From IMG/VR virus record IMGVR_UViG_3300045988_131075, positions 1 through 29,670 of that record: a stretch of 29,670 nucleotides of DNA. One strand, given 5' to 3'. The stretch comes from a virus. The notes under the pieces are model-generated. The model was not told the DNA's origin. It saw only the letters and a program-made list of their open reading frames with translations, and searched no databases. The position numbers and the translations under genes were made by a program. Shown one piece after another: positions 698-14,328 of this stretch. Position 1 is the stretch's first letter. Every line of letters begins with the position of its first letter.

Positions 698-1097
698 ATG
701 AATACCTCTTTTCTTATTTTCTATATATATTATATACTTTTTTTTTAAAAATGTCAAGATTTTTTTGGACGAAAACATACGCGTGAAACAATGTAAGGGC
801 GAAGCAATTTTTAATTAATCATAAGGCATATGATCCTACGCGGGCTTAAAAAAGTCTTTTTTTACCATTATAACATATTTTTTATAAAAAGTCAATTTTC
901 GGGATTTTTTTGGGCCATATGGAGAGGTGCTAGAAGTATGAAAAATTTTGCATATGGGTATACCGATCGGAAACTCGGCCCGGCACGTTCCATCGCGGGC
1001 CGGCCAAATAGACTGAGCATTCCGGGATTTTAGTCTGAGTCTATTTTAAACGTTTTTTTCGCGCAAAATTTACTAAACCTATAATTATTCCGAAATT

Positions 1098-1205
1098 CCG
1101 CCCGGAGCGTCAGTGATCGGGCGGTCCATTATACCACATTTTCCGATCGGTGTCAATAGGCAAAATGCACAAAAAAATCAGCAGGTTTTAGTCAACCTGC
1201 TGATT
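1098..1205. promoter_or_regulatory. Boundary module C1. It contains a GC hairpin ccgcccg-N13-cgggcgg (1098-1124) and a minus-strand promoter (-10 rc at 1128-1135 within GTGGTATAAT, -35 rc tgtcaa at 1151-1156). It ends with a bidirectional terminator hairpin at 1177-1204.
   Basis: Same architecture as C2-C6. Only a weak TATAAT sits on the + strand at about 1078, with no good -35. Confidence 0.65.
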
Positions 1206-1211
1206 GAATAT

Positions 1212-1628
1212 TTATGCAAGAAATGCGCTTACAATTTCATCGAACACTGTGGGGTTAATGTCCACATTAAAAAAGCGGTCGTTCTTGCGGAACGCTTTGG
1301 GGTATCGTCTAATCAGTTCCGCACGCAACGCGCTTTCCGCACCCTCGGCGGGATAGTCCCCGCAAGAACGGATTCGATGAACTTCAACGCGCGTGATAGA
1401 ATACTTTTTCGAGTATTCACCGATTTCATCACGCAAACGCCCTACAACATCTTTTGCGGAAGTGCCTACCTTGTTAAATTCAAGTTCGTCGTTGTGGTAA
1501 AACTTGAAAAAGTAAACTGCTTGTTCATTTTTCAGATTCTCGCCACAATTAGGCATAAACTCCATAGAAACGGGCGGTCTACCGTCCTTGAATCGACGTA
1601 ACTTAATAGTAATTTCTTCCATTAACAC
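1212..1628 (-). CDS. Hypothetical early protein of about 135 aa. The exact start is uncertain (GTG as in the ORF track, or the ATG two codons downstream).
   Basis: The ORF ends 7 bp from the C1 terminator. The conserved 29-nt leader element at 1641-1669 is upstream. Confidence 0.55.
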   Translation of the reverse strand: MLMEEITIKLRRFKDGRPPVSMEFMPNCGENLKNEQAVYFFKFYHNDELEFNKVGTSAKDVVGRLRDEIGEYSKKYSITRVEVHRIRSCGDYPAEGAESALRAELIRRYPKAFRKNDRFFNVDINPTVFDEIVSAFLA

Positions 1629-1745
1629 AAAATCCTCTCTATTGATTGAGGTTTACCATCGTTCTCTCAACCATTATTTTTTGCACTTTTTTGCTTGTTT
1701 TCGGGTGAAAAACCGCATTTTTCAGCGGTTTTTCACCCTTTTTTG

Positions 1746-2153
1746 TCAATTTTTGGGCTTTCGCTTCTGAATCAGGGTCAATTCATAGTCATTTTCGCCC
1801 ACATGGAACGCAATCATGCGCTCAATGTTCGTGATTTCCACATTTTCGCACGCATTTTCGCTGTTTTCACGCAAAAAAGTCGCAAGTTCAGCGATAATCG
1901 AGCGTTTTGTGGGGTTTTCCTTGCGCTGTCGCTTCTCAAACTTATAAGCGGTCGGCGCTTTGCGTGTTCCGGTCTTAGAATACTTGTTAGCTTCTTTGAG
2001 CTTTTCCGCGGACAAGTCAAAGTCTTTGGCGATTCCATGGTCAATGTCATCATCGTCCATGAGAATTTCTTTTGCTTCCTCGGCAGTACAATCCAACTTT
2101 TTCATCAGATTATCAATCTTTGCCTGAAAGTCCTTTTCACTCATTTTAGGCAT
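1746..2153 (-). CDS. Hypothetical early protein (135 aa) with an acidic, K-rich middle segment.
   Basis: RBS GGGGG 8 nt upstream of the ATG. Consensus promoter directly upstream, TTGACA(2201-2206 rc)-17-TATAAT(2178-2183 rc). Confidence 0.65.
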   Translation of the reverse strand: MPKMSEKDFQAKIDNLMKKLDCTAEEAKEILMDDDDIDHGIAKDFDLSAEKLKEANKYSKTGTRKAPTAYKFEKRQRKENPTKRSIIAELATFLRENSENACENVEITNIERMIAFHVGENDYELTLIQKRKPKN

Positions 2154-2221
2154 TTCTTTTGCCCCCTTTCAAGTATGATTATAACACCGCCGTCAGCAAA
2201 TGTCAAGAGAAATTTTTGGGA

Positions 2222-2250
2222 GCGCCTGATTTTTTTTCAGGCGCTCCCCT
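2222..2250. terminator. Strong intergenic hairpin gggagcgcctga-T8-tcaggcgctccc between two minus-strand genes. Possibly a terminator or attenuator, but it has no clear distal T-run.
   Basis: A 12-bp perfect stem with a T8 loop. It lies immediately downstream of gene 2255..2632 and upstream of the promoter at 2178-2206. Confidence 0.4.
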
Positions 2251-2254
2251 TGAA

Positions 2255-2632
2255 TCAATGCGCCATGCGGAAGTAGGACTTGCGCTTGTCCACAATCTTT
2301 TCCACCGTGTCTGCGTCAATCATCTGGCGCAGAAGAGCGGAAACGCGCTGGTTGGTGAGGTCGCCCAGACCGTCCACATTCTTAATGAGGTCGGTCACGG
2401 TATACAGCTTGTCAGGATTCGCGGACAGCTCAGCAAAGATAATGTCCTTGTAGCCGTCGTTGGCAATCTGATTCGCGGTCGGCTTCTTATCACCGGCGTT
2501 CTTGCGAGACAGCAGGTCGATTTCGTGATTGATAAACTCAACCATAGCGGGGTCAGCCTGAACCTCGCTCATTTTGAGCAAAGCCTCGAAACGGTCGCGC
2601 TTGGTGAGCTTCTTAACAGTAGAAGTAGACAT
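2255..2632 (-). CDS. Paralog A of a duplicated 125-aa early protein. The C-terminal part (KLYTVTDLIK...RVSALLRQMIDADTV) could be a winged-helix-like DNA-binding fold.
   Basis: RBS AAAGGAATTGATACT-ATG is identical to that of paralog B. Promoter TTGACA(2707-2712 rc)-17-TATACT(2684-2689 rc). About 70% identity to 4668..5048. Confidence 0.7.
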   Translation of the reverse strand: MSTSTVKKLTKRDRFEALLKMSEVQADPAMVEFINHEIDLLSRKNAGDKKPTANQIANDGYKDIIFAELSANPDKLYTVTDLIKNVDGLGDLTNQRVSALLRQMIDADTVEKIVDKRKSYFRMAH

Positions 2633-2930
2633 AGTATCAATTCCTTTCTTTGGCGGTAGGTCGCTACCCTTTTGATATTATTAAGTATACCACATTTTAG
2701 AGGGCTTGTCAAGAGGTTTCGCAAACTTTTCACACGAATTACTACCCCGACCTGACGGATAATTTATTGTTTGTTGATTCAATCTATTTGTCAGCAAAAA
2801 TGCTTCGAGGATAATTGGTTCAATCAAACTCACTTTCACGTTCAACGTTTGGCTTTACAACGTGGTGTATTATGTTTTCTTCCTATACTTTCTCAAGGTC
2901 GCGCGCCCTCGGATTTCTTGGGCTACTCCC

Positions 2931-3290
2931 TCTTGACATTTTCTATTGTAGCACACTCGCTGGGATTTGTCAAGAAGTTTTCAAGAAAAAACTCATGAAT
3001 TTTTTCTTTTATCCCGTGCGTTCCGCTCCGAAGAGACCTTAACGTAATAGGTGAACGGTCTATTGCTACTTCCAACCGTAGCCCCACACCGACCTGTGGC
3101 TCAGGGGTTTCCCTCTTGACATTATTTATTGTAGCACTTTTCGCGCTACTTGTCAAGAGGGAATTTCAAATTTCTTTGAAAACGGGTCAGTTACCGAGTT
3201 ATCACACCCATCAGCGAAGCCGTTCGGCAATTCACTGTTCCCTCCTGACATTATCTATTATAGCAGATTGCCCACAGATTACAATTGACA
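2931..3290 (-). promoter_or_regulatory. Non-coding array of three palindromic promoter-like elements, E1 (2931-2975), E2 (3114-3160) and E3 (3243-3290). Each has the form cTCTTGACAtt-N6-ATTGTAGCA-N12-TTGTCAAGA. On the minus strand each reads as TTGACA-17-TGCTACAAT (E1, E2) or as a perfect extended -10 TGCTATAAT (E3).
   Basis: No ORF with an RBS lies within 2690-3340. The elements are spaced about 185 and 130 bp apart. The ORF-track 77-aa ORF at 2923..3156 is just a translation of these repeats. Confidence 0.6.
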
Positions 3291-3342
3291 AAATAACCAA
3301 ATTACGGGAAAAAATTTTCTTCACTTTTGGTCAACTTTTCTC

Positions 3343-3490
3343 TTGACAAAATTGGCGGGGCGTGGTATAATGGAAAATTCGGACCGCCACGTGCGCCAGC
3401 GGTCCGCCAATTTTATCACAAAAATCCGCGTTTGTCAATAGGCAAAATAGACAAAAAAAACTGCCCATTTTTGGGCAGTTTTTTATTTTA
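3343..3490. promoter_or_regulatory. Boundary module C2. It has a + promoter TTGACA(3343-3348)-17-TATAAT(3366-3371) with TG extension, and a GC hairpin cggaccgc-N12-gcggtccg (3380-3406). A minus promoter follows (-10 rc 3410-3415 with TG, -35 rc 3433-3438), then a bidirectional terminator (stem 3461-3478, T-run to 3484).
   Basis: All elements were read directly. The convergent promoters face each other across the hairpin. Confidence 0.75.
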
Positions 3491-3673
3491 GTCCAGCAGG
3501 TTAATCTCGCCAGGAATCCTAAAAGAATCCGCGTCCAGCGTGGAATTATAGTCCTCGGTAAAGAGTTCAATCATTCCACACTCTGCGCAGATAATATAGT
3601 CATGGTCGATTAAAATGCCCATGTGAGGGTCATTGTCATCAGGGACTACAAAAAGGACTTGTTTAGCGTTCAT
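3488..3673 (-). CDS. Small early protein of about 61 aa (MNAKQVLFVVPDDNDPHMGILIDHDYIICAECGMIELF...), with CxxC plus His and Asp residues that might bind metal.
   Basis: Start re-assigned to the ATG with AAGAGG 8 nt upstream. The gene ends inside the C2 terminator. The hairpin-embedded promoter at 3722-3750 is upstream. Confidence 0.6.
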   Translation of the reverse strand: MNAKQVLFVVPDDNDPHMGILIDHDYIICAECGMIELFTEDYNSTLDADSFRIPGEINLLD

Positions 3674-3750
3674 GTAAAACACCTCTTTCATTTGATACAT
3701 TGATTATACCATAGGGAATAGGACTTGTCAAGCCCTATTCCCTATTTTTT

Positions 3751-4527
3751 TTAGCTCATGTTTATCATGGGATTTTCCTTAATGTTTCGCATGAGCGCGC
3801 GCTGAAACTCGGTAGGCTTGGGGCGTTCCACCGTGGGAGTTTTGAAAAGGGACTTTTCCATTTCCTTGTGCTGTCGGACGCAATAGCGCAGAATCTCAAC
3901 TTCAATGAGGACATCTTCTAATCCCGTGTGGGATTCATCAAAACTGTCCTCGCCGCTGATAAAGCGATAGAGAATTTCTGCGGTGAAACGGAGCTGTCCG
4001 TTCTTGGTCTTGTAGCCGTTCTTTTCGCAATAGTCGCGGTAAGTGGGCATTTTGCCGATAACCTGACGTGCCATTTTCAACGTGTCCCAAATTTCGAGGT
4101 CGTAGGGGAAGAAATAGCGATACTTGCTTTTCGTGTCCCATCTTTGCGCGTTGTTACAGGCGTTAAGGTCGAACCGCATATTATGAGCGCAGACAAAAGA
4201 GCAGTTGTAGCGCTCGACACATTCGCAGAACGCAAGACGAATTTCGTAAAGGTCAGCCATAATGCGAGTGCCGTTTTGAATGTCCTCGACATAGCGGGGA
4301 ATCTTGTCGGCATAGTATGCGGACTGCATGAGGTCGCGCTCGTAGCAGAAAATGTCGCGATTCACAAAAGAATGAGTTTCATAAACATTTCCCTTGGAAT
4401 CAATGACCGCCCACCCAAAGTCGTAGGGCAATACATTTGACATATCCAGCTTATCGCCGTCCTGAATGGTGTTTGCGGTTTCCGTGTCCAGCATAATACC
4501 GTAGTTTCTGCGCCTATCAATACCCAT
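3751..4527 (-). CDS. DEDDh-family (DnaQ-like) 3'-5' exonuclease, 258 aa.
   Basis: Motif Exo I is IMLDTETAN. The C-terminal segment YRFISGEDSFDESHTGLEDV carries the His-x4-Asp of Exo III. Promoter TTGACA-17-TATACT, then the conserved 29-nt leader and AGGAGA RBS upstream (4540-4620). Confidence 0.7.
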   Translation of the reverse strand: MGIDRRRNYGIMLDTETANTIQDGDKLDMSNVLPYDFGWAVIDSKGNVYETHSFVNRDIFCYERDLMQSAYYADKIPRYVEDIQNGTRIMADLYEIRLAFCECVERYNCSFVCAHNMRFDLNACNNAQRWDTKSKYRYFFPYDLEIWDTLKMARQVIGKMPTYRDYCEKNGYKTKNGQLRFTAEILYRFISGEDSFDESHTGLEDVLIEVEILRYCVRQHKEMEKSLFKTPTVERPKPTEFQRALMRNIKENPMINMS

Positions 4528-4667
4528 TTTATCGTCTCCTATTGGAAAAGTAGATTGAGGTTTACCATCGTTCTCTCAACCTCTAAATATAGTATAGCAC
4601 TTTACTATTGGTTTGTCAATAGTTTTTTTGTGGGGCAGGGGATTTTTTTATCCCCTGCCCTTTTCCC

Positions 4668-5048
4668 TTATGCGCGGGAGAAGTAGGACTTGCGGTTGCC
4701 AACCGTCTTGACAACCGTGTCTGCGTCAATCATCTGACGCAGAAGAGCGGAAACGTGCTGGTTGGTATACTCCGCAAGCTTGGGAACGCCCTTGATGAGG
4801 TCGGTCACAGTATACAGCTTGTCGGGGTTTGCGGTCATCTCGTCCAGAATGACCTGCTTCACAGCGTCATTCTCCATCTGCTTGGCCGTGGGCTTCTTGT
4901 CGCCCGCGTTCTTTTTGACGAGCAGTTCAATCTCATGCTCGATGAACGCCACCATATCAGGATTTGCCTGAACCTCGCTCATTTTGAGCAGGGCCTCGAA
5001 ACGGTCACGCTTGGTGAGCTTCTTAGTCGTAGTAGTAGAAGTAGCCAT
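4668..5048 (-). CDS. Paralog B of the duplicated 125-aa early protein. It starts at MATSTTTTKKLTKRD, not at the ORF-track M 17 codons upstream, because the promoter -10 at 5101-5107 would put the TSS inside that extension.
   Basis: RBS aaaggaattgatact-ATG is identical to that of 2255..2632. The two proteins are about 70% identical with conserved ends. Confidence 0.7.
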   Translation of the reverse strand: MATSTTTTKKLTKRDRFEALLKMSEVQANPDMVAFIEHEIELLVKKNAGDKKPTAKQMENDAVKQVILDEMTANPDKLYTVTDLIKGVPKLAEYTNQHVSALLRQMIDADTVVKTVGNRKSYFSRA

Positions 5049-5545
5049 AGTATCAATTCCTTTCTGGTTTTTGAGACTGTCCTTGTCTATGGTAGTCATT
5101 ATATCATAGGCGGGAGTAGGTTGTCAATAGGTTTTTGCAATTTTTTTTAAGGGCGGTCGCGAGGTTTATTACTATACATCTTGTTTATACCTACCTTTAT
5201 CTATACTCTTAATCCAATTCAATTTACTAAGCCATTAGTTTTTAAGGCGGTGGACGAGCATTAGAAGTCATCTTGTTTTTACCTCTCTCATTTGATGTAT
5301 TCATTATACCCTACGTAGAACGATTTGTCAAGGGGTTTTTCAAACTTTTTTGAAAGTTTGTTCGGCACGCCACGCTTGGAACATTCCGTCGGATTTTGGT
5401 ATAATGGTCAAGGGAACTGCCTTTCCGCAGGTCTTACTCTTTCCTCCTGACATTATGTAGTATAGCAGATTGGTAATGATTTGTCTATTGGTAAAATGAC
5501 CAAATAACGGGAAAAAATAAAATTGAAATTTGTGCGAAATTTCTC

Positions 5546-5690
5546 TTGACAAAAATGCTGGCAGGGTGTATAATGGTAAATTCCGGCCGTAGCGCGCGGA
5601 AACGGCCGGCCCATTATATCACATTCAAGGAACTTTGTCAATAGTCAAAGTAAACAAAAAAATCTCCCCATTTTTGGGGAGATTTTCTTT
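5546..5690. promoter_or_regulatory. Boundary module C3. It has a + promoter TTGACA(5546-5551)-17-TATAAT(5569-5574), a hairpin ccggccg-N13-cggccgg (5583-5609) and a minus promoter (-10 rc ATTATA at 5613-5618 with TG, -35 rc at 5636-5641). It ends in a terminator, tctcccca-T5-ggggaga at 5664-5682 plus T-run.
   Basis: Direct reading. Confidence 0.75.
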
Positions 5691-5947
5691 TAGCCAATCA
5701 CATTGACTTCGGTTTTGACAGGCGTTACCATCTTGTCGCGCGAGAACTCGCGAACCTGACCCGTTTCAAGATTCACCGCGTAGCAATACTGCAAACCTCT
5801 CGACCGGACAAACGGCGTGTTGTTGTTGCTGTCAATTTTGAGATACATTCCCATACCGACCCCATTGGAGCGCAGAGTGGTGAACGTGCCACCGCTGGGA
5901 ATGTTGATAATTTGGAGCTGACCCTTAGTGCCAAAATTTACTTTCAT
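5690..5947 (-). CDS. Hypothetical early protein of about 85 aa (MKVNFGTKGQLQIINIPSGGTF...). Start set at the ATG with AAGAGGG 7 nt upstream.
   Basis: Ends at the C3 terminator. The following gene (5962..6276) lies 15 bp upstream. Confidence 0.55.
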   Translation of the reverse strand: MKVNFGTKGQLQIINIPSGGTFTTLRSNGVGMGMYLKIDSNNNTPFVRSRGLQYCYAVNLETGQVREFSRDKMVTPVKTEVNVIG

Positions 5948-5961
5948 TTTTATTCCCTCTT

Positions 5962-6276
5962 TCAAAATTCTTCTAAAAAGTGAATCGGCTTATGGTTTGG
6001 TCTAAAAAATGCCATTCCCTCGGTATAAAGAGAATTAAACAAATCTGCGGACACTTCAAACCATTCCGTGCCGCTAATGCGATTGCCTAACTCACTTAAA
6101 GTCAGATGACAAGAATTTTCCATGTCTCGACTTCCAGCGCAAGTGCTACGCATTATTGCTTTTGGATTATGGCTATAATAGCTTTTACGACGCTTTGCAA
6201 GGTTTTTAGTGCCGTCAGAATAGCCAACTTTAACCAAATGGCTATTGGTTAAATTATCCATCATCAAATACAGCAT
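5962..6276 (-). CDS. T5orf172-domain (GIY-YIG-like) protein, 104 aa.
   Basis: N-terminal LVKVGYSDGTKNLAKRRKSY and the C-terminal TEWFEV motif are typical of the T5orf172 family. RBS GAGG 5 nt before the ATG. Confidence 0.5.
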   Translation of the reverse strand: MLYLMMDNLTNSHLVKVGYSDGTKNLAKRRKSYYSHNPKAIMRSTCAGSRDMENSCHLTLSELGNRISGTEWFEVSADLFNSLYTEGMAFFRPNHKPIHFLEEF

Positions 6277-6283
6277 TTTTACC

Positions 6284-6427
6284 TCACAGCAGATGGATAT
6301 TAACCCATTCTGCGGTCACAAGTCCGATTTCCTTAGAGACAACCGTTTCATAGCGGTAATTACCGCCATCAGTTCGTCCGGTCACTTTGGCGAGAACGCC
6401 AAGAGTAAGCCAAAAATAAGGCATCAT
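6284..6427 (-). CDS. Small protein of about 47 aa (MMPYFWLTLGVLAKVTGRTDGGNYRYETVVSKEIGLVTAEWVNIHLL). The ORF-track 97-aa ORF is an N-terminally over-extended version that overlaps the upstream gene.
   Basis: RBS AAAGGGG 8 nt upstream of the ATG. The preceding gene ends 6 bp upstream. Confidence 0.45.
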   Translation of the reverse strand: MMPYFWLTLGVLAKVTGRTDGGNYRYETVVSKEIGLVTAEWVNIHLL

Positions 6428-6432
6428 TTTTA

Positions 6433-6639
6433 TCACCCCTTTGGACCGACCGTAAAGAGCGAACGCAGAAGCAACAGAACAATCCAAATTGCGAGTGCCA
6501 GCTTCCACGAGAACACAATGACGAAAGTGCCGATTGCGGTGATACCGAGGGCGGGAAGAAGCCAACAGAGAAGCCAAACCAGACCAGAGGTGAGCAGGAA
6601 CGAAATTGCGAGAGACAGCAGAATCAAAAGAACAAACAT
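6433..6639 (-). CDS. Small polytopic membrane protein, 68 aa, almost entirely hydrophobic.
   Basis: Promoter, then the conserved leader (gaatacatcaaatgaaaaggaga) and RBS upstream at 6640-6700. The -35 lies in the gggctttgtcaagccc palindrome. Confidence 0.6.
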   Translation of the reverse strand: MFVLLILLSLAISFLLTSGLVWLLCWLLPALGITAIGTFVIVFSWKLALAIWIVLLLLRSLFTVGPKG

Positions 6640-6694
6640 TTTATTTTCTCCTTTTCATTTGATGTATTTATTATACCATTGGAGTAGGGCTTTG

Positions 6695-7195
6695 TCAAGC
6701 CCTTTTCTCCAAAAGTTCCGAAAGTTTTTCGATAATGTTTACTGCGGTCGGGTCAATGGTAGCGCCCAAGTGCCAACCATTCCGAACTTTTTCATTATCG
6801 TCAACCAAGATGGACACGTCATAGCGGTCGCGCACGCTGTCGGCCTTAGTTGCGCCATACTGGACGCCATGGAAGTGGTCATAGTGGAAGCCCTGTTCTT
6901 CAAGCCATGCGCGCTTTGCTTCACGCACGAGGCTTTTGTATTCCTCGCTCGAATCCTTAGAGAGCCAAGTAATGATATTGATTTCCCAGCCCTCGGCGCG
7001 GAGAAGTTCGCAAACCTCATTCAATTCAGCCATGTCGCACATGGGAACGGCAGTTCGATAGGGCTTAGGATTTTCCGAACGGAGAAGCGCAAGCCAATCC
7101 TTGACGCCGTAGAGGTCAGCGATAGTGCCGTCCATGTCAAAGTTGATGGAGCGCCGACGAGCCACAACGTGGGACTTGATGTAAGTGATTTTCAT
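6695..7195 (-). CDS. HAD-superfamily 5'(3')-deoxyribonucleotidase-like protein, 166 aa.
   Basis: HAD motif I is FDMDGTIAD (DxDGT). Motif IV is ILVDDN near the C-terminus. The size and layout match the NT5C-type phage nucleotidases. Confidence 0.6.
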   Translation of the reverse strand: MKITYIKSHVVARRRSINFDMDGTIADLYGVKDWLALLRSENPKPYRTAVPMCDMAELNEVCELLRAEGWEINIITWLSKDSSEEYKSLVREAKRAWLEEQGFHYDHFHGVQYGATKADSVRDRYDVSILVDDNEKVRNGWHLGATIDPTAVNIIEKLSELLEKRA

Positions 7196-8057: not shown

Positions 8058-8200
8058 TTGACAAATTGCTGAGATGGTGGTATAATGGAATTTCCGGCCG
8101 TGGCATGCGCGAACGGCCGGCCATTTTATCACACTATTGGATTTTTGTCAATAGGCAAAATAGCTAAAAAAATGAGGTGAAAATTCACCTCAAATTTTAT
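8058..8200. promoter_or_regulatory. Boundary module C4. It has a + promoter TTGACA(8058-8063)-17-TATAAT(8081-8086) with TGG extension, a hairpin ccggccg-N13-cggccgg (8094-8120) and a minus promoter (-10 rc 8123-8128, -35 rc 8146-8151). The terminator is gaggtgaaaattcacctc at 8174-8191.
   Basis: Direct reading. Confidence 0.75.
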
Positions 8201-8376
8201 CTGTGATAACTGGTAGTAATGGTTTTGAAAATCTGATAGATATTTTCATCTTCCATCAACTTTTGGATAAAAGCATCAGCTTCTTCTTCGGAATCAAAAC
8301 TAACTCGATTATCATAATACTGGTCCCAAGGATTTTTACCGCTGTAATCAACCCGGAATGTCTTTTCAATTTCCAT
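8197..8376 (-). CDS. 59-aa acidic protein missed by the 60-aa ORF threshold (MEIEKTFRVDYSGKNPWDQYYDNRVSFDSEEEADAFIQKLMEDENIYQIFKTITTSYHR).
   Basis: RBS AAAAGGGG 8 nt upstream. Hairpin-embedded promoter at 8410-8447. The gene ends at the C4 terminator. Confidence 0.55.
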   Translation of the reverse strand: MEIEKTFRVDYSGKNPWDQYYDNRVSFDSEEEADAFIQKLMEDENIYQIFKTITTSYHR

Positions 8377-8451
8377 TTTATTTGCCCCTTTTCTTTGATG
8401 CTTTTATTGTAGCACAAGGGACTTGTTTTGTCAAGCCCCTTGTGCTATTTT

Positions 8452-8904
8452 TTAACGTTCAGACACAATGCTAAGGTAGCGGACAATCATGTCCATTTCG
8501 CAACCCATGTCTTGCTGGTCGCAAACCGCATAACCCACAAGGTCGCCGTCCGCACAAATCGGGTAAACACCATAAGTGTTATTGAAAACAAATGGCTTTC
8601 TTTTAAAATCCCACTGGGTCGAAACATAAGGCGGAAAGTTTTCCATACCCCGCAGTTTCACGGTAGTATCATAGATTGCGATGGGACGCAGACCGGAATT
8701 CGATGCCATTGTAATAGCGGTTCGCAGAGCTTCTTCGGTCAGCGAACCAAGCACCGAATATCTCTTGAAGCAAACGCAGTCGTTGTCTTCAATGAAGATT
8801 TCAAGCGGGTCGCCCTCGCGAATCTTCAAAGTCCGGCGAATCTCTTTCGGAATGACCACACGTCCAAGGTCATCAATTCTGCGAACAATACCAGTAGCTT
8901 TCAT
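8452..8904 (-). CDS. SpoVT/AbrB-family transcriptional regulator, 150 aa, with an N-terminal swapped-hairpin AbrB domain.
   Basis: The N-terminus MKATGIVRRIDDLGRVVIPKEIRRTLKIREGDPLEIF is near-identical in pattern to Bacillus AbrB and SpoVT N-domains. Promoter and conserved leader upstream. Confidence 0.75.
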   Translation of the reverse strand: MKATGIVRRIDDLGRVVIPKEIRRTLKIREGDPLEIFIEDNDCVCFKRYSVLGSLTEEALRTAITMASNSGLRPIAIYDTTVKLRGMENFPPYVSTQWDFKRKPFVFNNTYGVYPICADGDLVGYAVCDQQDMGCEMDMIVRYLSIVSER

Positions 8905-8968
8905 TTTAATTTTCCCCTTTCACTTGATACGTTAAGTATAGCAGAACAAAAGGCTTTTGTCAAGCCCT

Positions 8969-9451
8969 TTATTCAAGATTTTTGCTTTCTGCGACAAAAT
9001 ATTTTGCTTCATATTGATTGGCAATAGCCTTGACTTTTGCACTTTCCTTTTGGGTCGCGCAGTAAAAATTGAAAAGCGTATGTTTATCGCTTAATTTAAT
9101 GTAAGAGTGTGGAACGTCATGCAAGCCAAAGTCAATGGTATTAGTGTATCTTGTCGGGACAGTCAGCTCGACTTTCCATAGCTTGTCTTTGCGGGCTTTC
9201 TCTTCAATCCACTTGACAAAGTAGACGCCTACGAAATTACAAACAGCAGTAATAGCCATTTTCAACCAGATAGGCATACCGTCCGCGGAAGTCAGCACAA
9301 TCACATAGGAATAAAAACCATAAGTGATAGCATTGATAAGAGATGCGCTAATTTTTCCGCCGTTGACAGTCAAAATGCTTTTGATAGTTGACAGAACCAC
9401 ATTTACCGCCGTGCAAAGCGCGAACAGAAGAATTGTATTCATTATTATCAC
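8969..9451 (-). CDS. Membrane protein of 160 aa with about 3 TM segments in the N-terminal half.
   Basis: ORF with RBS AAGGAAAGGG. A promoter is upstream at 9480-9505. Confidence 0.55.
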   Translation of the reverse strand: MIIMNTILLFALCTAVNVVLSTIKSILTVNGGKISASLINAITYGFYSYVIVLTSADGMPIWLKMAITAVCNFVGVYFVKWIEEKARKDKLWKVELTVPTRYTNTIDFGLHDVPHSYIKLSDKHTLFNFYCATQKESAKVKAIANQYEAKYFVAESKNLE

Positions 9452-9515
9452 CCTTTCCTTTTTCTATTATAATAATATCATATTATAATAGAAATGTCAA
9501 TAGAGAATTTTTAAT

Positions 9516-9674
9516 TTACTCTTTTAATTTTTCTAATAGAGCATCAGCACATTCATAGCTGGTACTTCTGCGGTCGCACTCGTTGGACAAAGGACAACAC
9601 GCGCAGTCGTTAAAGGTCTCTACCCAAGCGCGCAACCAGTCAATCAAGCGCAAAGTATTAACTTCCTCATACAT
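9516..9674 (-). CDS. Cys-rich 52-aa protein (MYEEVNTLRLIDWLRAWVETFNDCACCPLSNECDRRSTSYECADALLEKLKE) that is translationally coupled: its ATG sits inside the 3' end of the upstream gene.
   Basis: AAAGGAG 10 nt upstream. An ATGTATGA overlap with the stop of 9667..10014. Confidence 0.4.
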   Translation of the reverse strand: MYEEVNTLRLIDWLRAWVETFNDCACCPLSNECDRRSTSYECADALLEKLKE

Positions 9675-10014
9675 TGTTATCATTCTCCTTTACTCGGACA
9701 AAAAAGACCTTGTTATAGATTTTTGTTGCTTTAAGGTCAATCCAGAAATACACGTTTCCGCATACTCGATAGATTTTACAAGTCTCTCCGCTAACCTTTT
9801 TGACTTCCTCAAATTTCTCTGGTGTTGTAGGGTGGAAAACCGTCAGTTTGAGAAATATGCAATAGAAAGCCAAAGGAACGAAGCCGATAATCATAGCAAT
9901 CCATGCGAGAACATCAGTTAAAGTGTTTTCCCATTCACACTACTCATCGGTAATTGTAGCGAACGCAATACCTACGCAAAACGCGAGAATTAACCAATAC
10001 CATGCAACCATCAT
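9667..10014 (-). CDS. Two-TM membrane protein. It is 115 aa if the in-frame TAG at 9940-9942 is read through; otherwise it is a 24-aa peptide plus the ORF-track 75-aa ORF.
   Basis: The only strong RBS (GGGGG 6 nt before the ATG) is at the upstream start at 10014. The ORF-track start at 9894 has no Shine-Dalgarno site. The two ORFs are in the same frame and separated only by TAG. Promoter TAGACA-17-TAAGAT upstream. Confidence 0.45.
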
Positions 10015-10118
10015 TTTGTTCCCCCTTTATTTGTTGTATACATCTTACCACATTATAGGATTTTTGTCTATTGGCATTTTACACAAAAATTCGTGCGAAA
10101 ATTTGTTGAACTTACCTC

Positions 10119-10240
10119 TTGACAAAAAACTCGGCGCGCCACAATCGTCCGCGCGCCGCCAATTTTATCACATTCAAGGAACTTTGTCAATAGTGAAAGT
10201 AAACAAAAAAAATCACCCAAATTGGGTGATTTTTCATTTA
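10119..10240. promoter_or_regulatory. Boundary module C5. It has a + TTGACA (10119-10124) directly abutting the hairpin cggcgcgc-N11-gcgcgccg (10132-10158), with no + strand -10. A minus promoter follows (-10 rc 10162-10167, -35 rc 10185-10190), then a terminator tcacccaaattgggtga (10213-10229) plus T-run.
   Basis: Compared with C2-C4, about 23 bp between the + -35 and the hairpin are missing. Confidence 0.7.
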
Positions 10241-10414
10241 GTTTCCTACGGCTTCGAGGTCGACGAGAATGGGAACGAGCTTGTCTTCAAGAAGCGCGAC
10301 ACGCTCAATCATTTCATTTGCTGCTGTTCCGCCCGACGGGTATCTCTTCTGAATGCCGTATCGAGCCATTCTGCACACCGTTTCAACAACCTCGCTCAGT
10401 TTCTCATTCTTCAT
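10238..10414 (-). CDS. Small protein of about 58 aa (MKNEKLSEVVETVCRMARYGIQKRYPSGGTAANEMIERVALLEDKLVPILVDLEAVGN).
   Basis: GGAG 9 nt upstream of this ATG. The ORF-track start 5 codons upstream lacks an RBS. Confidence 0.5.
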   Translation of the reverse strand: MKNEKLSEVVETVCRMARYGIQKRYPSGGTAANEMIERVALLEDKLVPILVDLEAVGN

Positions 10415-10526
10415 TTTTCTTATCTCCATTCAATTTATTTTTTGGAAAGGGTGGCGGTTGTTTCAGGCACAACCGCCAAAGCCATAGGAAAGGGGGAGAA
10501 AAAACACGAACAAAAGTTCGGTTTTG

Positions 10527-10775
10527 TCAAGGGATAATCAGTTCCGCATCGTAGACAGGTCGAACCATGCAGGGCGCGCTGAAGCAGTCAAGATTGTAAG
10601 TGTCCAAATTGAGAGCGTTCCATTTTTCTGCGCCGGTATCTTCATCAACCACAGACGCAGTTTTGATGTAATAGACGTTTCCGGAAGCGGGGTCTTGAAA
10701 AATCATACCCTCGAGGAGGTCTTCAAATGCAACCATTTTGTTGCTATGCTTAACAGTAATTTTCATTTCATTCAC
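10527..10775 (-). CDS. Hypothetical protein of 82 aa or slightly shorter, overlapping the upstream gene by ATGA.
   Basis: ORF coupled to 10772..11125. A weak hairpin plus T-run is downstream at about 10500-10520 (minus strand). Confidence 0.5.
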   Translation of the reverse strand: MNEMKITVKHSNKMVAFEDLLEGMIFQDPASGNVYYIKTASVVDEDTGAEKWNALNLDTYNLDCFSAPCMVRPVYDAELIIP

Positions 10776-11125
10776 CCTTTATAATAGTATTTGTAAGCCC
10801 ATTCGATGATTTCATGACTTGTGGTAGTCCATTCCTCTTTGGGGCTATCGAACTTTTCCGCATACTTTTTGATGTAGTTATTATACTCCATGCGTGCGGT
10901 GTCGTATGCTCCAATAGCCACAATTAAGGCGTGCTTCGCTTCTTCGGCATCAGAGACGGCTTTCTTGCGGTCGGGGCAGTCAGGATAGAGGTTAATCACC
11001 CCTACGCGCGTAATGACTTGCCTTGTCTTTTCATAAAGGCGGTCGCGCGTTTCCCATACTTCATAGAGCTCATCATCTGCACGTTTTTCATAAGGGTTGA
11101 AAGGCTTCTTTTTCTTACCGAACAT
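10772..11125 (-). CDS. Hypothetical protein of about 117 aa (MFGKKKKPFNPYEKRADDELYEVWETRDRLYEK...). The ORF-track N-terminal extension runs into the upstream gene and is rejected.
   Basis: AAAAGGAG about 11 nt upstream of the ATG. Overlaps the stop of 11115..11453. Confidence 0.5.
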   Translation of the reverse strand: MFGKKKKPFNPYEKRADDELYEVWETRDRLYEKTRQVITRVGVINLYPDCPDRKKAVSDAEEAKHALIVAIGAYDTARMEYNNYIKKYAEKFDSPKEEWTTTSHEIIEWAYKYYYKG

Positions 11126-11453
11126 TTTTCTTTTTCTCCTTTTCCTGTTTATTCCACATTCTATCAAAGAACGCATTTGCGAGAACACGCTTGTAAAGGT
11201 TGTCAGGCATGGGGCGCTCGCCGTGCTTGTTTCTCCAAATCGCGGTGATTTTATCAATATCCGCGATATAGGCTGTAATGAGTGTGCCGTCCTTGGCGCT
11301 ACGAATAAGAAGAATACCGGTTGTAGTGATAGTGTAGAGAACATCGTCCTCAACGCTGTCGATATACGGTTCGCCGATTCCTACATTATCGTAGATGAAG
11401 AGCAGGCGGTCAATGCGGTCTTGCGTGGCGTGTTTTGACATTTTGATAAGCAT
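11115..11453 (-). CDS. Hypothetical protein of 112 aa.
   Basis: AAGAGG 8 nt upstream of the ATG. Extended -10 TGGTATAAT upstream (11468-11480 rc). Confidence 0.55.
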   Translation of the reverse strand: MLIKMSKHATQDRIDRLLFIYDNVGIGEPYIDSVEDDVLYTITTTGILLIRSAKDGTLITAYIADIDKITAIWRNKHGERPMPDNLYKRVLANAFFDRMWNKQEKEKKKNVR

Positions 11454-11514
11454 TTGTTTTACCTCTTTCTTTTCCTCTTGGATTGATTATATTATACCAT
11501 GCGGAAGGGCTTTT

Positions 11515-11550
11515 TGGAAAAAGAGGGAAAAATTTTCCCTCTTTATTTAT
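11515..11550. terminator. Bidirectional terminator agaggga-aaaatttt-tccctct with a flanking A-run and T-run.
   Basis: Downstream of the minus gene 11547..11819. The hairpin is at 11522-11542. Confidence 0.55.
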
Positions 11551-11819
11551 CCCCAATAGATTGAAAGAATCTTGTCAATGTAGCTGGCTTTATAGCCATA
11601 ATTCTGCATAATATCTTTGCAAGCCTGCTTGACCCTCTTGTCATTTATTGAAGCAAGAGAACATTCGTAAAGTGTTTCTCCCGTTCCGGCCACACGCTCA
11701 ATTTCTGGCATGATGTGGTCTTCAATGAACGCACGCGCAAGGGCATTATTTTTAGCTTGGATTTCTTTGCGAACTTCCTCGGCTTTGCGCGTCATTTCAT
11801 AAGCATATTTAATTTCCAT
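11547..11819 (-). CDS. Hypothetical protein of 90 aa.
   Basis: Promoter TTGACA-17-TACAAT sits in the hairpin gcatataggg/ccctatatgc (11852-11895). RBS AAAGGGAG. Confidence 0.6.
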   Translation of the reverse strand: MEIKYAYEMTRKAEEVRKEIQAKNNALARAFIEDHIMPEIERVAGTGETLYECSLASINDKRVKQACKDIMQNYGYKASYIDKILSIYWG

Positions 11820-11897
11820 GGTGTTTCTCCCTTTCCTTTATTGTATCTTTATTGTAGCATATAGGGCTTGTTTTGTCAAGCCCTATATGCAATTTTT

Positions 11898-12206
11898 TTA
11901 GCAATAGGCGAGATTCCCGCGTGCCCAGCCATATACGCTGATTTGATTGCACGCCTTGCCAATTTCAAGCGCCTGCTTTTTGGTCTGCACCCTCTTGGAC
12001 TTGTCAACATAATAGATGCCGTTCGCAAGCCATACACCGCAGTTTCCGCCGAAGCCCTTAACCGCATTGATAGCTTCGCGGGCGGTCTTGCACTCAACGC
12101 CGTTGGTAGCGACCTGCCAACCGGACTTGTAGTTGACTTTCTTGCCATATTTGAGGGTCATGCCGTCGTTTTCAGCGAGCTTGCGAATAGAACGAATGTT
12201 AATCAT
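11898..12206 (-). CDS. Hypothetical protein of about 102 aa (MINIRSIRKLAENDGMTLKYGKKVNYKSGWQVATNG...), with the start re-assigned.
   Basis: AAAGGGA 7 nt before this ATG. Promoter TAGACA-17-TATACT upstream. The ORF-track 156-aa version starts upstream of that promoter. Confidence 0.5.
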   Translation of the reverse strand: MINIRSIRKLAENDGMTLKYGKKVNYKSGWQVATNGVECKTAREAINAVKGFGGNCGVWLANGIYYVDKSKRVQTKKQALEIGKACNQISVYGWARGNLAYC

Positions 12207-12334
12207 GTTGTTATCCCTTTCCGGTTTGGTAGGTTTTCCTTCCCTTACTGTGATTATAGTATAGCACCGATTCGGGATTCTGTCTATTGACATTATGCAC
12301 AAACTTTCGTCATAAAAATTGTTGAACTTGCCTA

Positions 12335-12455
12335 TTGACACAAAATTCCGGCCGCGCCTGGCGTGCACGGCCGGCCGATTATATCACCAAGTTTTGAAAT
12401 TGTCAATAGGCAAAATATACAAAAAAATCTCCCCATTTTTGGAGAGATTTTTAAT
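12335..12455. promoter_or_regulatory. Boundary module C6. It has a + TTGACA (12335-12340) abutting the hairpin ccggccg-N13-cggccgg (12348-12374) and a minus promoter (-10 rc ATTATA at 12378-12383 with TG, -35 rc at 12401-12406). The terminator is tctcccca-T5-ggagaga (12428-12447).
   Basis: Like C5, it lacks the + strand -10. Confidence 0.7.
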
Positions 12456-12498
12456 TCAAAAAATTTAATTTTAACCATCAACATAAATGATAAGAACA

Positions 12499-12711
12499 TC
12501 ATCTTTGGCTTTCAAACCGCTGACAGGCAAATCCCAGCACCCATTCTTCGCTTACGCCCAAAACATCACCATTCAGAGTCATGCGACCTTTGCGGTCTTT
12601 GAGATAGCGCCCGCAAGTGTTTTCATTTATCACTTCAATGCCGTTCCCCTCATAGAACATCAGTGCGCCTTTTACCAGACCAATCACATTTTTAACCATG
12701 CCCAAAGTCAT
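12499..12711 (-). CDS. Hypothetical protein of about 70 aa (MTLGMVKNVIGLVKGALMFYEGNGIEV...).
   Basis: AAAGAGG 8 nt upstream. Promoter TTGACT-17-TATACT. Ends 45 bp from the C6 terminator. Confidence 0.55.
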   Translation of the reverse strand: MTLGMVKNVIGLVKGALMFYEGNGIEVINENTCGRYLKDRKGRMTLNGDVLGVSEEWVLGFACQRFESQR

Positions 12712-12820
12712 TTTATCAACCTCTTTCGTTTTTAATGTCGTTCCCTTGGAACAATTATAGTATAGCACAAGGTGTAGCAAAAGTCAACTTAAATTTTGGG
12801 ATTACCAATAGATAAAATGT

Positions 12821-12867
12821 ATAAAAATTCGGCAGGATTTTGTGTATCCTGCCGAATTTTTTTTATT
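12821..12867. terminator. Bidirectional terminator ggcaggat-tttgtgt-atcctgcc followed by T8.
   Basis: Stem at 12831-12853, with A/T runs on both sides. Confidence 0.6.
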
Positions 12868-13057
12868 CTTCCCAACTTTCGATGACTTCGCCGGTCATTG
12901 CATCGATGATGTCAACCGAGAGGACGTTGTCTGCGTCCATGACCTTCTGCCCGAGGGCATATGCGTTTTCCTGTCCCGCGACAGACACTTCATAGCGATA
13001 GCGGTTGTTATCGCCAGCCTTGTAATTGTAGTAGTTGACAGAAACAATAAATGACAT
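12863..13057 (-). CDS. Hypothetical protein of 64 aa.
   Basis: RBS AAAGGGGA. Promoter TTGACA-16/17-TATAAT upstream (13090-13130). Confidence 0.6.
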   Translation of the reverse strand: MSFIVSVNYYNYKAGDNNRYRYEVSVAGQENAYALGQKVMDADNVLSVDIIDAMTGEVIESWEE

Positions 13058-13161
13058 TTGGCTTATCCCCTTTCTTTTTATACTCTTATTATACCATAGA
13101 TTCAGGATTTGTCAATAGGTTTTTGAAAAAAGTTTGAAAAAAAATAAGGGCGTTTCCGCCC

Positions 13162-13419
13162 TTATTCTTCATAAATAATAATATTATTTTGTAGCAGTTT
13201 CACGCGAGAATCTTCACAAAAGTGATAGGTAAAACTCACGGAGAGGTGTTTGAGAAATTCGCGTCTCCATGTGCGGGACTTCGGCTCTAATTCAAAGAGA
13301 ATGTAAAGCGTTTCTTCTAACCGGTCGAGGAAGTTTTCAGTGTCCGCGACGTTGAACTTACCCGCGAATTTCGGAATAGGATTAGAAGTCCCAACAGTAA
13401 TAATGTTGTAAGTTGTCAT
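13162..13419 (-). CDS. Hypothetical protein of 85 aa.
   Basis: Conserved leader plus AAGGAG 8 nt upstream. Promoter TTGACA-17-TATAAT (13440-13475 rc). Confidence 0.6.
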   Translation of the reverse strand: MTTYNIITVGTSNPIPKFAGKFNVADTENFLDRLEETLYILFELEPKSRTWRREFLKHLSVSFTYHFCEDSRVKLLQNNIIIYEE

Positions 13420-13506
13420 GGAAAAATCTCCTTTTCATTTGATGCTTTTATTATACATGATAGTGTGGAACTTGTCAATACTTAAAATAGAAAAAAGAGA
13501 AGTTTT

Positions 13507-13611
13507 TCAACTTCTCTTTTTCAGTTTCTTTTCTGCCCATTCAATGAGCGCACCCACGGCGATTGTACCGGTATAAATGAAAAGTAAAACTAAACCATCA
13601 TGTAGACTCAT
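13507..13611 (-). CDS. Alternative model, gene 2 of 2: a 34-aa single-TM peptide (MSLHDGLVLLFIYTGTIAVGALIEWAEKKLKKRS).
   Basis: GGAGG 9 nt upstream of the ATG. Same frame and stop as the ORF-track 76-aa ORF 13507..13737. Confidence 0.4.
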   Translation of the reverse strand: MSLHDGLVLLFIYTGTIAVGALIEWAEKKLKKRS

Positions 13612-13612
13612 T

Positions 13613-13741
13613 TTAATATTCCTCCACATACTCTGTAAAAACAAGCTCCCAGTCAGGGCCAAGATCCGGAGCTTTGCAGTATCGCGACTGTCGAATGTCA
13701 TGCTCATTAGTGATTTTGTTGATAAACTCGAATTCATACAT
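13613..13741 (-). CDS. Alternative model, gene 1 of 2: a 42-aa acidic protein (MYEFEFINKITNEHDIRQSRYCKAPDLGPDWELVFTEYVEEY).
   Basis: AAAGGAGA about 10 nt upstream of this ATG (14 nt for the ORF-track ATG in another frame). Its TAA is followed after 1 nt by the ATG of gene 2. Confidence 0.4.
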   Translation of the reverse strand: MYEFEFINKITNEHDIRQSRYCKAPDLGPDWELVFTEYVEEY

Positions 13742-13830
13742 TTTTTATTATCTCCTTTTCTTTACTGTACCAATAGTATAGCAGATAACAGGGTATTTGT
13801 CAATACCATTTATAAAAAAATGTACGAGGT

Positions 13831-14127
13831 TTAATCCTCGTACATTTCCATTAACGATTTGATTTTTTCGATTGTATTTTCAATTTCTTCTACATAGTCG
13901 GCCTGTTCCTCACTTGCGCGCATTGCCTGTTCATATGCGTCATAGATAGCTTCACACTGTTCGCGGGTGTAGTCTTCTTCTGGAGCGTGTTCCATGGTGA
14001 CGACTGCCGTCCAAGCGAGCGTTTCCTTATCGTCAAGGTCATCGGCTTTTTCCGTGGCAGTGGTAAGCTCATGTTCGAGGCGCGTCTTTTCGAGCGAGAG
14101 GGTCTTGAGAAAATCCTTGTTAGTCAT
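13831..14127 (-). CDS. Acidic coiled-coil protein of about 98 aa (MTNKDFLKTLSLEKTRLEHELTTATEKADDLDDKE...).
   Basis: The ORF-track start is the ATG inside the conserved leader (caaATGaaaaggaga). The real start is 8 codons downstream, after that RBS. Confidence 0.6.
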   Translation of the reverse strand: MTNKDFLKTLSLEKTRLEHELTTATEKADDLDDKETLAWTAVVTMEHAPEEDYTREQCEAIYDAYEQAMRASEEQADYVEEIENTIEKIKSLMEMYED

Positions 14128-14328
14128 TGCGGTGTATCTCCTTTTCATTTGATGCCTTTATCATACCACTTCTGGACTGAATGTCAATAGGTTTTTGAAA
14201 AAAATATTTATTCATCAGGGCTGTATAAATATTCATGTATAAATATTCATTTTCGGGTGTATAAAGGCGACTGGCATAATGCACAAAATGGTTTCAAAAT
14301 TTTTGTGCAATATAACTATTGCAAAACT

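Follow-up and report, generated by a model that had tools for sequence, protein, structure and literature searches.

Two described phage systems come closest to the locus analysed here. The host-takeover module of Bacillus phage SPO1 (genes 37-60; Stewart et al. 1998, as cited in PMC6873191) is described as a block of small early genes that carry the promoters and ribosome-binding sites of highly expressed genes. The PeSL (promoter-early stem-loop) cassettes of T4-type phages are described in PMC2839356 and PMC4122927 as repeated elements in gene-variable, orphan-rich regions; each combines an AT-rich tract with a strong sigma-70-type promoter and a G/C stem-loop placed upstream of, over, or between the -35 and -10 motifs. 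The crossover of a PeSL mini-circle was mapped between the Shine-Dalgarno and -10 boxes (PMC2839356). We analysed 29,670 nucleotides of viral DNA (IMG/VR record IMGVR_UViG_3300045988_131075, positions 1 to 29,670; hereafter the window), in which an island of small minus-strand genes is packed with near-consensus promoters. With a probability of about 0.8, we read it as an early, host-takeover-type island that would be expressed by host polymerase and is probably built from shuffled expression cassettes. The island works like the SPO1 module and the PeSL regions and is a member of neither, with markedly denser promoters. The kind of system is already known from model phages; the instance here is extreme in density and adds one conserved element without known counterpart.

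We scanned positions 700-14200 for TTGACA-N16-18-TATAAT and compared the counts with 300 dinucleotide-preserving shuffles. The minus strand holds 12 sites that match all 12 hexamer bases (0.003 expected, at most one in any shuffle), 26 sites that match at least 11 (0.16 expected, at most two), and 38 that match at least 10 (2.2 expected, at most seven); at the level of at least 11/12, this is a 160-fold excess. On the plus strand there are three perfect sites (3343, 5546, and 8058), against 0.12 expected at 11/12 or better. About six of the 38 minus-strand sites fall within genes and are probably chance matches. Discounting these leaves ~32 intergenic promoters, one per ~420 bp, and the claim of an initial reading of the bare sequence (the sequence-only reading) that more than 30 near-consensus promoters lie on one strand therefore holds, as does the enrichment over shuffled sequence on which it had staked that claim. 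Its remark that a TGn extension is often present is likewise correct: TG stands one base ahead of the -10 in 23 of the 26 sites at 11/12 or better. A program scan of positions 1-15000 finds 73 promoter-like sites (31.3 +/- 5.2 in shuffled sequence), 15 of them perfect, and 40 terminator-like hairpins (14.4 +/- 3.4). The rest of the window (15001-29670) is not enriched, with 75 sites against 66.4 +/- 8.2 and nine terminators against 6.9; the exception there is a divergent promoter pair, 17184(-)/17265(+). For 17 of the 26 best promoters, a start codon with a ribosome-binding site follows at 25-64 nt, in most cases at 30-34 nt.

Through a marker protein beside the island, we found more than 200 relatives in viral contigs. 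Every relative that covers the upstream 9 kb has 10-21 sites at 11/12 or better, all on the same strand, and the divergent pair is kept in nearly all relatives covering the boundary region. In the related phage phAss-1, one strand carries 46 such sites; the last 11 kb (50-53% GC) account for 20, and the structural block is free of them. A family logo drawn from 770 distinct promoter contexts shows T in 72%, G in 52%, T in 91%, and G in 90% of contexts ahead of the -10 (TRTG). The -35 is preceded by an A-tract, at -5 to -10 from it, and 77% of the predicted starts are A. All three features lay outside the promoter search criteria. TRTG and the upstream A-tract are reportedly hallmarks of Gram-positive sigma-A promoters. 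We compared 237 orthologous pairs of promoter and relative. Spacers mismatch at a rate of 8.4% and the ten bases transcribed first at 10%, compared with 2.8% for the -10, where nearly every change affects the third base, and 0.16% for the -35; among close relatives, spacer changes are 50 times as frequent as changes in the -35 hexamer. The promoter hexamers are under purifying selection, and the array as a whole is real and under selection. The TTGACA/TATAAT excess, TRTG, the constrained hexamers, and the placement of 17 of 26 sites ahead of genes together support the earlier proposal that these are housekeeping-sigma promoters serving small minus-strand genes.

The likeness to the SPO1 module lies in a 12-16 kb block of small early genes in a large Gram-positive phage, divided into many short operons. 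A tblastn search with 36 island proteins against SPO1 positions 1-15000 found no homologue at E<=0.01. The same promoter scan on both strands of SPO1 1-15000 gives no perfect site, five at 11/12 or better, and 15 at 10/12 or better, against 15, 29, and 45 in the island. Unlike SPO1, the island is a GC-rich, standard-code block inside a TAG-recoded genome. The pre-early and early promoters of phage T5 are also said to be clusters of very strong host-polymerase promoters, reportedly with conserved flanks outside the hexamers and with early takeover genes behind them; T5 differs from the island in host type and is not known to have any sequence relation to it.

A DNA near-identity search of 700-14200 against 50,697 phage records gave no match; the phage was identified instead through its capsid protein (25921-27027), which matches the phAss-1 capsid at 50% identity (92% of its length, E 2e-100). 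Besides phAss-1, the best capsid matches come from Enterococcus or Bacillus phages, and no T4-type phage is among them. A member of the "Caudoviricetes code 15 clade" found in the human gut, phAss-1 translates TAG as glutamine; its predicted hosts are Clostridia (phAss-1 paper), and promoters go unmentioned in that paper. When TAG is read as sense in the window, the summed length of open reading frames (ORFs) of at least 100 aa grows from 2475 to 4301 aa. Genes tile the plus-strand block 17315-29645 only under this reading, with 0-12 in-frame TAG in each, and the low-GC minus-strand gene 17115..16723 likewise reads TAG as sense, while the island uses the standard code. We assign the window phage to the TAG-recoding "code 15" Caudoviricetes, as an uncultivated relative of phAss-1 from the gut. 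Within the plus-strand block, a 580-aa ORF (19607-21349) and a 559-aa ORF (21702-23381) are, by eye only, a putative terminase and a putative portal. No tRNA genes were found in the window. Genome bins that hold the capsid genes of relatives carry Clostridia, Lachnospiraceae, Bacillota, Erysipelotrichaceae, Bacilli, or Mollicutes labels in 12 of 13 cases, and the host is probably a member of the Bacillota (Firmicutes).

The GC content of the island is 42-47%, compared with ~30% in the DNA flanking it on both sides. The gap between promoter-rich island and late genes is 10-15 percentage points both here and in phAss-1 (125-136 kb vs. 5-35 kb); the composition of the early genes may match host translation and that of the late genes the phage's own tRNAs. 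Strong Shine-Dalgarno sites and promoters of their own are typical of the island genes. Their products are mostly orphans, the majority without any family match. The matches that we do find are an AbrB/MazE-like domain, a nucleotidase-like HAD protein, an exonuclease-like protein, and a T5orf172 domain, the first three of which give weak hints of host shut-off products. A standard-code island beside TAG-recoded late genes, its orphan content, and the more than 200 relatives agree with the earlier suggestion of a phage region of the host-takeover type.

When the island is compared with itself, the repeats are regulatory DNA only, with the exception of the sole duplicated gene (2270-2649 and 4680-5065); the repeated cassettes are 70-93% identical over 30-280 bp. 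Class A has six copies (at 1156, 3438, 5641, 8151, 10190, and 12406), each composed of a two-way terminator, the conserved ATTTTGCCTATTGACA, a strong promoter (P1), and a 27-nt GC hairpin; ~150 nt beyond lies a second promoter (P2) with conserved sub-optimal hexamers, TAGACA and TATACT. Three of the six copies have a perfect promoter on the plus strand facing P1, and the other three have lost it by a ~24-nt deletion. A scan of viral contigs with the 16-mer ATTTTGCCTATTGACA was uninformative, returning more than 118 mostly unrelated single matches. Class C is defined by the ATCAAATGA leader, and its -35 often lies within a GGGC...GCCC hairpin; -35 hexamers at 3731, 6698, 8434, 8963, and 11879 lie within such hairpins. 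In a third class, the predicted transcripts start AUGUCA(A/G)GAGG. We note that ATGTCA(A/G)GAGG stands five bases past the -10 of four minus-strand promoters (3251, 3122, 2939, and 5453), so that these transcripts would start at or beside AUG. Leaderless mRNAs for small proteins were considered for all four and rejected for 5453, since relatives have frame-shifting indels there despite 95-100% DNA identity; the 5453 transcript is therefore probably a non-coding RNA.

The core of the class C leader, ATCAAATGA, has five copies on the minus strand and none on the plus strand. Three of them share the exact 17-mer (6647, 13427, and 14137), and two diverged copies lie near 8912 and 8390. The sequence-only reading had named seven places for this leader, and all seven are right; its statement that most of the promoters share it is not, since the leader follows only seven of the 26-38 (about one-fifth), and there are two or more further leader classes. 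As it had warned, ORF calling is misled by the ATG inside the leader: a listed ORF (13831..14148) begins there, and the start behind the Shine-Dalgarno site is 14127. The idea of a duplicated promoter-leader cassette stands insofar as repeated cassettes containing a promoter and a leader are evident in the self-comparison. What it lacked is that the ATCAAATGA leader is one of at least three classes, serving seven promoters, and that the cassettes also include terminators and hairpins and mark where whole gene units differ between relatives. An 18-mer leader scan of viral contigs finds seven places on six contigs, five of which are also among the close relatives.

Eleven close relatives align with the island in 90-95% identical blocks that are broken at recurring points. 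The unit 8170-8448, which comprises a promoter, a 59-aa gene, and a terminator, is absent from a 95%-identical relative (c118370), where a different terminator stands instead. In another case, a different ORF takes the place of 7202-7444, and the crossover falls after the -10 and ahead of the ribosome-binding site. Some close relatives carry a gene with a T5orf172/MUG113 domain (5962-6276, minus strand) and others cleanly lack it; no cassettes flank it, as expected of a free-standing mobile gene. Breakpoint clusters are non-coding in 35 of 44 cases, against 35% expected (P about 1e-9). The relatives thus differ by whole promoter-gene-terminator units or by ORF swaps with crossovers in the leader.

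In this respect the island resembles PeSL regions: the component list is the same, relatives differ by cassette-flanked units, and crossovers fall between the -10 and the ribosome-binding site. It is unlike them in that the phage lineage and the host phylum are unrelated and the Gram-positive TRTG is present. The class A combination of P1, hairpin, facing promoter, and weaker second promoter is absent from the PeSL descriptions consulted. Common descent of the island cassettes with PeSLs is unlikely; because the phage is not T4-type and its promoters carry TRTG, we describe the island as working like PeSLs and do not file it as one.

Under the reading that we prefer, nearly every gene or gene pair would be its own expression unit, in which an A-rich tract precedes a near-consensus promoter of the housekeeping-sigma type, its -10 extended by the Gram-positive TRTG, and the leader would place the start codon about 30-34 nt past the -10 behind a strong ribosome-binding site. 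The hairpin of a unit would often be the terminator of the previous gene or hold the next -35. Unmodified host RNA polymerase and ribosomes would express the island as soon as the DNA enters, ahead of the suppressor tRNA and the other phage functions needed to read TAG-containing late genes. The families of promoter, leader, and terminator repeats would act as portable expression modules and as homology patches, which would account for relatives that differ by whole units. Early timing, the use of host sigma-A, and recombination at the cassettes are what we infer here.

Several observations weigh against this interpretation. Start sites, promoter strength, and timing are predictions from sequence alone. 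No gene stands directly behind nine of the 26 best promoters (the six hairpin P1 promoters, plus 895, 2973, and 3156), so protein expression cannot account for all of the promoters. The first ~1.6 kb of the island (15875-14468, the first four genes) is without a near-consensus promoter. Breakpoints at gene boundaries would also follow from selection alone. The assignment of a Bacillota host draws on promoter style, the prediction in the phAss-1 paper, and genome-bin labels, none of which is strong.

The explanation that survives best beside this one is that the cassettes persist mainly as recombination modules, as proposed for the PeSLs of T4, acting as stretches of homology by which orphan genes come and go along with the signals for their expression, and that promoter density is a by-product of gene-by-gene acquisition; we give it about an even chance. 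All internal repeats but the one gene duplicate are cassettes, the unit 8170-8448 is cleanly absent from a relative, breakpoints are enriched in non-coding DNA, and the 7202-7444 crossover falls where PeSL mini-circles map (PMC2839356). Random recombination followed by selection against gene-breaking events gives the same pattern, however, and the T5orf172 gene comes and goes without flanking cassettes. This explanation complements the expression-unit reading and does not replace it.

The conserved element without known counterpart is the hairpin of the class A cassette. Eight copies occur in the window, six of which directly follow strong P1 promoters and two of which have no consensus promoter. 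Among 147 distinct family copies, 82 are exactly 27 nt long. In 51 distinct copies, picked by flanks and GC content only, the outer eight positions are Watson-Crick paired in 92% of cases, compared with ~30% in shifted registers. Each position co-varies among several pair types, G-U and A-C pairs are almost absent, and the loop ACG is kept. The near-absence of G-U pairs means that a constraint at the DNA level or on both strands fits as well as one on RNA, and the conserved length and loop hint that some factor recognises the hairpin. Its start lies 2-4 nt past the -10 of P1. The -10 of the facing promoter always ends 7 nt from the hairpin, which puts the two predicted starts ~25 bp apart, and its hexamers are kept perfect despite unrelated spacers. 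The plus-strand RNA predicted from 3343 is ~110 nt long and would end at the terminator 3455-3484. Such plus-strand RNAs are predicted to fold into a 5' hairpin, a middle hairpin, and the terminator (z -4 to -6); the minus-strand leaders show no unusual folding beyond the hairpin itself. One copy of the hairpin is recognisable in phAss-1. Searches of Rfam at curated thresholds return no family match, and all sub-threshold matches are terminator-driven. A CRISPR-repeat mimic and a standard intrinsic terminator were both considered, and the 7-13-nt loop and short T-run fit neither well. We also considered whether the even spacing of ~2.2 kb between hairpins is functional and rejected it: spacing is 2.0-2.5 kb in close relatives and loosens to 0.7-4 kb in distant ones, so the evenness may reflect shared ancestry together with one ~2.4-kb segmental duplication.

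These features raise a second alternative, that the six P1-hairpin cassettes are a separate control device and not ordinary gene promoters, which we regard as possible, though on balance unlikely. Such a device could block 5'-end-dependent decay, stop most transcripts after ~38 nt, render the polymerase terminator-resistant, or produce an antisense pair of small RNAs. The outer-position pairing and constant length, the tight placement of the hairpin behind P1, the fixed distance and perfect hexamers of the facing promoter, the folding of the plus-strand RNAs, and the copy surviving in phAss-1 all point this way. Yet the function is something we infer entirely, the scarcity of G-U pairs also suits a DNA-level constraint, the facing promoter is gone from three of the six cassettes, two hairpins stand without a consensus promoter, and Rfam holds no match.

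Two kinds of described element bear comparison with these cassettes. The pR and pL promoters of coliphage 186 reportedly stand face to face, with starts 62 bp apart and genes on both sides, and are said to form the lysis-lysogeny switch. The island differs from them in its closer predicted starts, the GC hairpin between the promoters, a plus-strand product predicted to be a short non-coding RNA, and three recurrences of the arrangement. In Bacillus, 5'-terminal stem-loop stabilisers (the ermC and aprE leaders and SP82 early RNA) are said to consist of a stable hairpin at or near the 5' end. The island hairpin is like these stabilisers in lying within a few bases of the predicted 5' end, both for P1 transcripts and for plus-strand RNAs; unlike simple stabilisers, which need no recognition factor, it keeps its 27-nt length and loop ACG. 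Possible roles for this candidate element are a 5' stabiliser, an attenuator, read-through control, a source of antisense RNAs, a collision switch, or transcript priming of replication. More speculatively, and with rather low probability, the hairpin may be a control element of a kind undescribed in model phages, placed at the first transcribed bases and in half of the cassettes clamped by a second perfect promoter. It might, for example, combine a collision switch with hairpin-capped antisense small RNAs that time early-gene shut-off, or act in cis as an RNA for terminator read-through.

It is improbable that the array mainly soaks up host RNA polymerase, with gene expression secondary. Density and perfection do go beyond the apparent needs of expression, with 12 perfect sites where the SPO1 module has none; nine strong promoters lack a gene directly downstream, and the three perfect plus-strand promoters point only into terminators. 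But a short, fixed distance separates 17 of the 26 best promoters from genes led by ribosome-binding sites, which makes gene expression the simpler reading, and sequence cannot tell a sink from a strong promoter. One infecting genome offers ~40 sites to the thousands of polymerases in a cell. Titration of RNA polymerase by the array, which the sequence-only reading had suggested, is speculation.

That the sites are chance or compositional matches, or bind a protein other than RNA polymerase, has in its favour only the general point that a consensus match does not prove function, and it is contradicted by the statistics (the 160-fold excess over shuffles, with none in the AT-richer half of the window), by a textbook sigma-70 substitution profile with an invariant -35 and a -10 invariant save for its third position, and by TRTG, A-tract, and start A that were not searched for; we consider it extremely improbable.

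No phage of this TAG-recoding gut group has ever been grown. The array outlines their infection programme in concrete terms: a standard-code, higher-GC island would be read at once by the host and followed by a lower-GC block that needs a suppressor tRNA. For Bacillota, the array would also be a source of ~30 very strong modules of promoter and ribosome-binding site with natural variation, and it carries the idea of cassette shuffling over from T4-type phages to a lineage unrelated to them. For reporter and small-RNA experiments, the hairpin cassettes make a well-defined, cheap target.

Table 1. Promoters, hairpins, and terminators of the island and its boundary. Fractions are hexamer bases matching TTGACA and TATAAT; TG denotes TG one base ahead of the -10; P1 and P2 are the first and second promoters of class A (hairpin) cassettes. 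Promoter functions and genes served are predicted.
Feature	Position	Strand	Remark
Early-gene island	200..16150	-	~36 small genes, median 93 aa, 69% coding, standard code
Promoter 12/12, no TG	729..757	-	start codon of gene 697..320 lies 32 nt past -10
Promoter 11/12, TG (TTGACT/TATAAT)	867..895	-	no ORF ahead of next promoter
Promoter 12/12, TG	1128..1156	-	P1 of hairpin cassette
Promoter 12/12, TG	2178..2206	-	gene 2153..1746
Promoter 11/12, TG	2684..2712	-	gene 2632..2255
Promoter 11/12, TG	2945..2973	-	leader class AATGTCAAGAGGGA; no conserved ORF
Promoter 11/12, TG	3128..3156	-	leader class AATGTCAAGAGGGA; no conserved ORF
Promoter 11/12, TG	3410..3438	-	P1 of hairpin cassette
Promoter 12/12, TG	3703..3731	-	-35 within GGGCTTGACAAGTCC hairpin; ATCAAATGA leader; gene 3673..3488
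Promoter 11/12, TG	4591..4619	-	exonuclease-like gene 4527..3751
Promoter 12/12, TG, 18-nt spacer	5098..5127	-	gene 5048..4668
Promoter 12/12	5303..5331	-	ATCAAATGA leader; ahead of micro-ORF 5271..5242
Promoter 12/12, TG	5613..5641	-	P1 of hairpin cassette
Promoter 12/12, TG	6670..6698	-	-35 within GGGCTTGACAAAGCCC hairpin; exact leader 6647-6663; gene 6639..6433
Promoter 12/12, TG	7477..7505	-	gene 7444..7202, an ORF swapped in a relative
Promoter 11/12, TG	8123..8151	-	P1 of hairpin cassette
Promoter 11/12, TG	8406..8434	-	-35 in hairpin; one-base-deletion leader variant; gene 8376..8197
Promoter 11/12, TG	8935..8963	-	leader variant ATCAAGTGA; AbrB/MazE-like gene 8904..8452
Promoter 11/12, TG	9472..9500	-	gene 9442..8969
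Promoter 11/12, TG	10162..10190	-	P1 of hairpin cassette
Promoter 11/12, TG	11851..11879	-	-35 in loop of 12-bp hairpin 11857-11890; gene 11819..11547
Promoter 12/12, TG	12378..12406	-	P1 of hairpin cassette
Promoter 12/12, TG, 16-nt spacer	13088..13115	-	gene 13057..12863
Promoter 12/12	13450..13478	-	exact leader 13427-13443; gene 13419..13162
Promoter 11/12, TG	13775..13803	-	genes 13741..13613 and 13611..13507
Promoter 11/12, TG, 16-nt spacer	14160..14187	-	exact leader 14137-14153; gene 14127..13831
P2 of cassette 3438, 10/12, TG	3257..3284	-	
P2 of cassette 5641, TAGACA-17-TATACT, TG	5459..5487	-	
P2 of cassette 8151, TAGACA-17-TATACT, TG	7971..7999	-	ahead of gene 7939..7676
P2 of cassette 12406, TAGACA-17-TATACT, TG	12258..12286	-	ahead of gene 12206..11898
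Perfect promoter facing P1-3438	3343..3371	+	-10 ends 7 nt from hairpin
Perfect promoter facing P1-5641	5546..5574	+	
Perfect promoter facing P1-8151	8058..8086	+	
27-nt GC hairpin	976..1002	.	no consensus promoter directly upstream
27-nt GC hairpin	1098..1124	.	3 nt past -10 of P1-1156
27-nt GC hairpin	3380..3406	.	between P1-3438 and plus-strand promoter 3343
27-nt GC hairpin	5583..5609	.	between P1-5641 and plus-strand promoter 5546
27-nt GC hairpin	8094..8120	.	between P1-8151 and plus-strand promoter 8058
27-nt GC hairpin	10132..10158	.	after P1-10190, then AGTTTTTT
27-nt GC hairpin	12348..12374	.	after P1-12406
27-nt GC hairpin, 10-bp stem	14329..14355	.	no consensus promoter upstream; preceded by 11-nt tandem repeat
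Two-way terminator	1176..1205	.	directly upstream of cassette 1156
Equivalent two-way terminator	3455-3484		
Equivalent two-way terminator	5656-5689		
Equivalent two-way terminator	8173-8192		
Equivalent two-way terminator	10207-10235		
Equivalent two-way terminator	12423-12452		
Promoter 11/12, minus half of divergent pair	17156..17184	-	kept in nearly all relatives
Perfect promoter heading TAG-recoded gene block	17265..17293	+	

Among minor features of the island, the 390-nt non-coding stretch ahead of its first four genes (15900-16100 region) holds a degenerate, cassette-like hairpin pair and, by eye, a 9/12 site near 16070 (TTGAAT-17-TATGAT) that is absent from the program-scan list. Tandem repeats occur at the edges and inside: a 17-nt unit repeated seven times at the far end (31-154), an 11-nt unit repeated 5.7 times at 14376-14437, just ahead of a promoter-less GC hairpin, and a ~28-nt segment at the GC boundary (16159-16271) with a second copy 85 nt away. 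A long terminal repeat like that of SPO1 or T5 was considered for the island; the contigs of some relatives (L131, L133, and L207) stop at its edges, and most continue across it. Strong hairpins with a T-run on the plus strand only lie at 1703-1738, 4632-4661, and 11857-11890; these would stop antisense transcription over the island and would not end the island's own genes.

Two minus-strand micro-ORFs, 5271..5242 (MTSNARPPP-stop) and 5179..5147 (MYSNKPRDRP-stop), keep their ARPPP-stop and RDRP-stop C-termini in 9-10 relatives via synonymous changes, while earlier residues vary; in this they resemble proline-rich ribosome-arrest leader peptides. An identical 29-nt element, GGTTGAGAGAACGATGGTAAACCTCAATC, occurs at 1644-1672 and 4553-4581 in the leaders of two unrelated genes, namely 1622..1212 (putatively GIY-YIG/T5orf172-like by eye, with no Pfam or PHROG match) and the exonuclease-like 4527..3751. 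The minus-strand gene 10014..9667 encodes a 115-aa two-helix membrane protein with one TAG at codon 25. Programmed recoding at this codon was rejected, since eight out of eight relatives have TGG (Trp) there; the TAG is thus a recent mutation, which a suppressor tRNA may tolerate. Many contigs of relatives (L127-L206) are 190-201 kb long, so that the genome of this lineage is probably well above the 136 kb of phAss-1, and one 402-kb contig carries two diverged copies of the marker protein.

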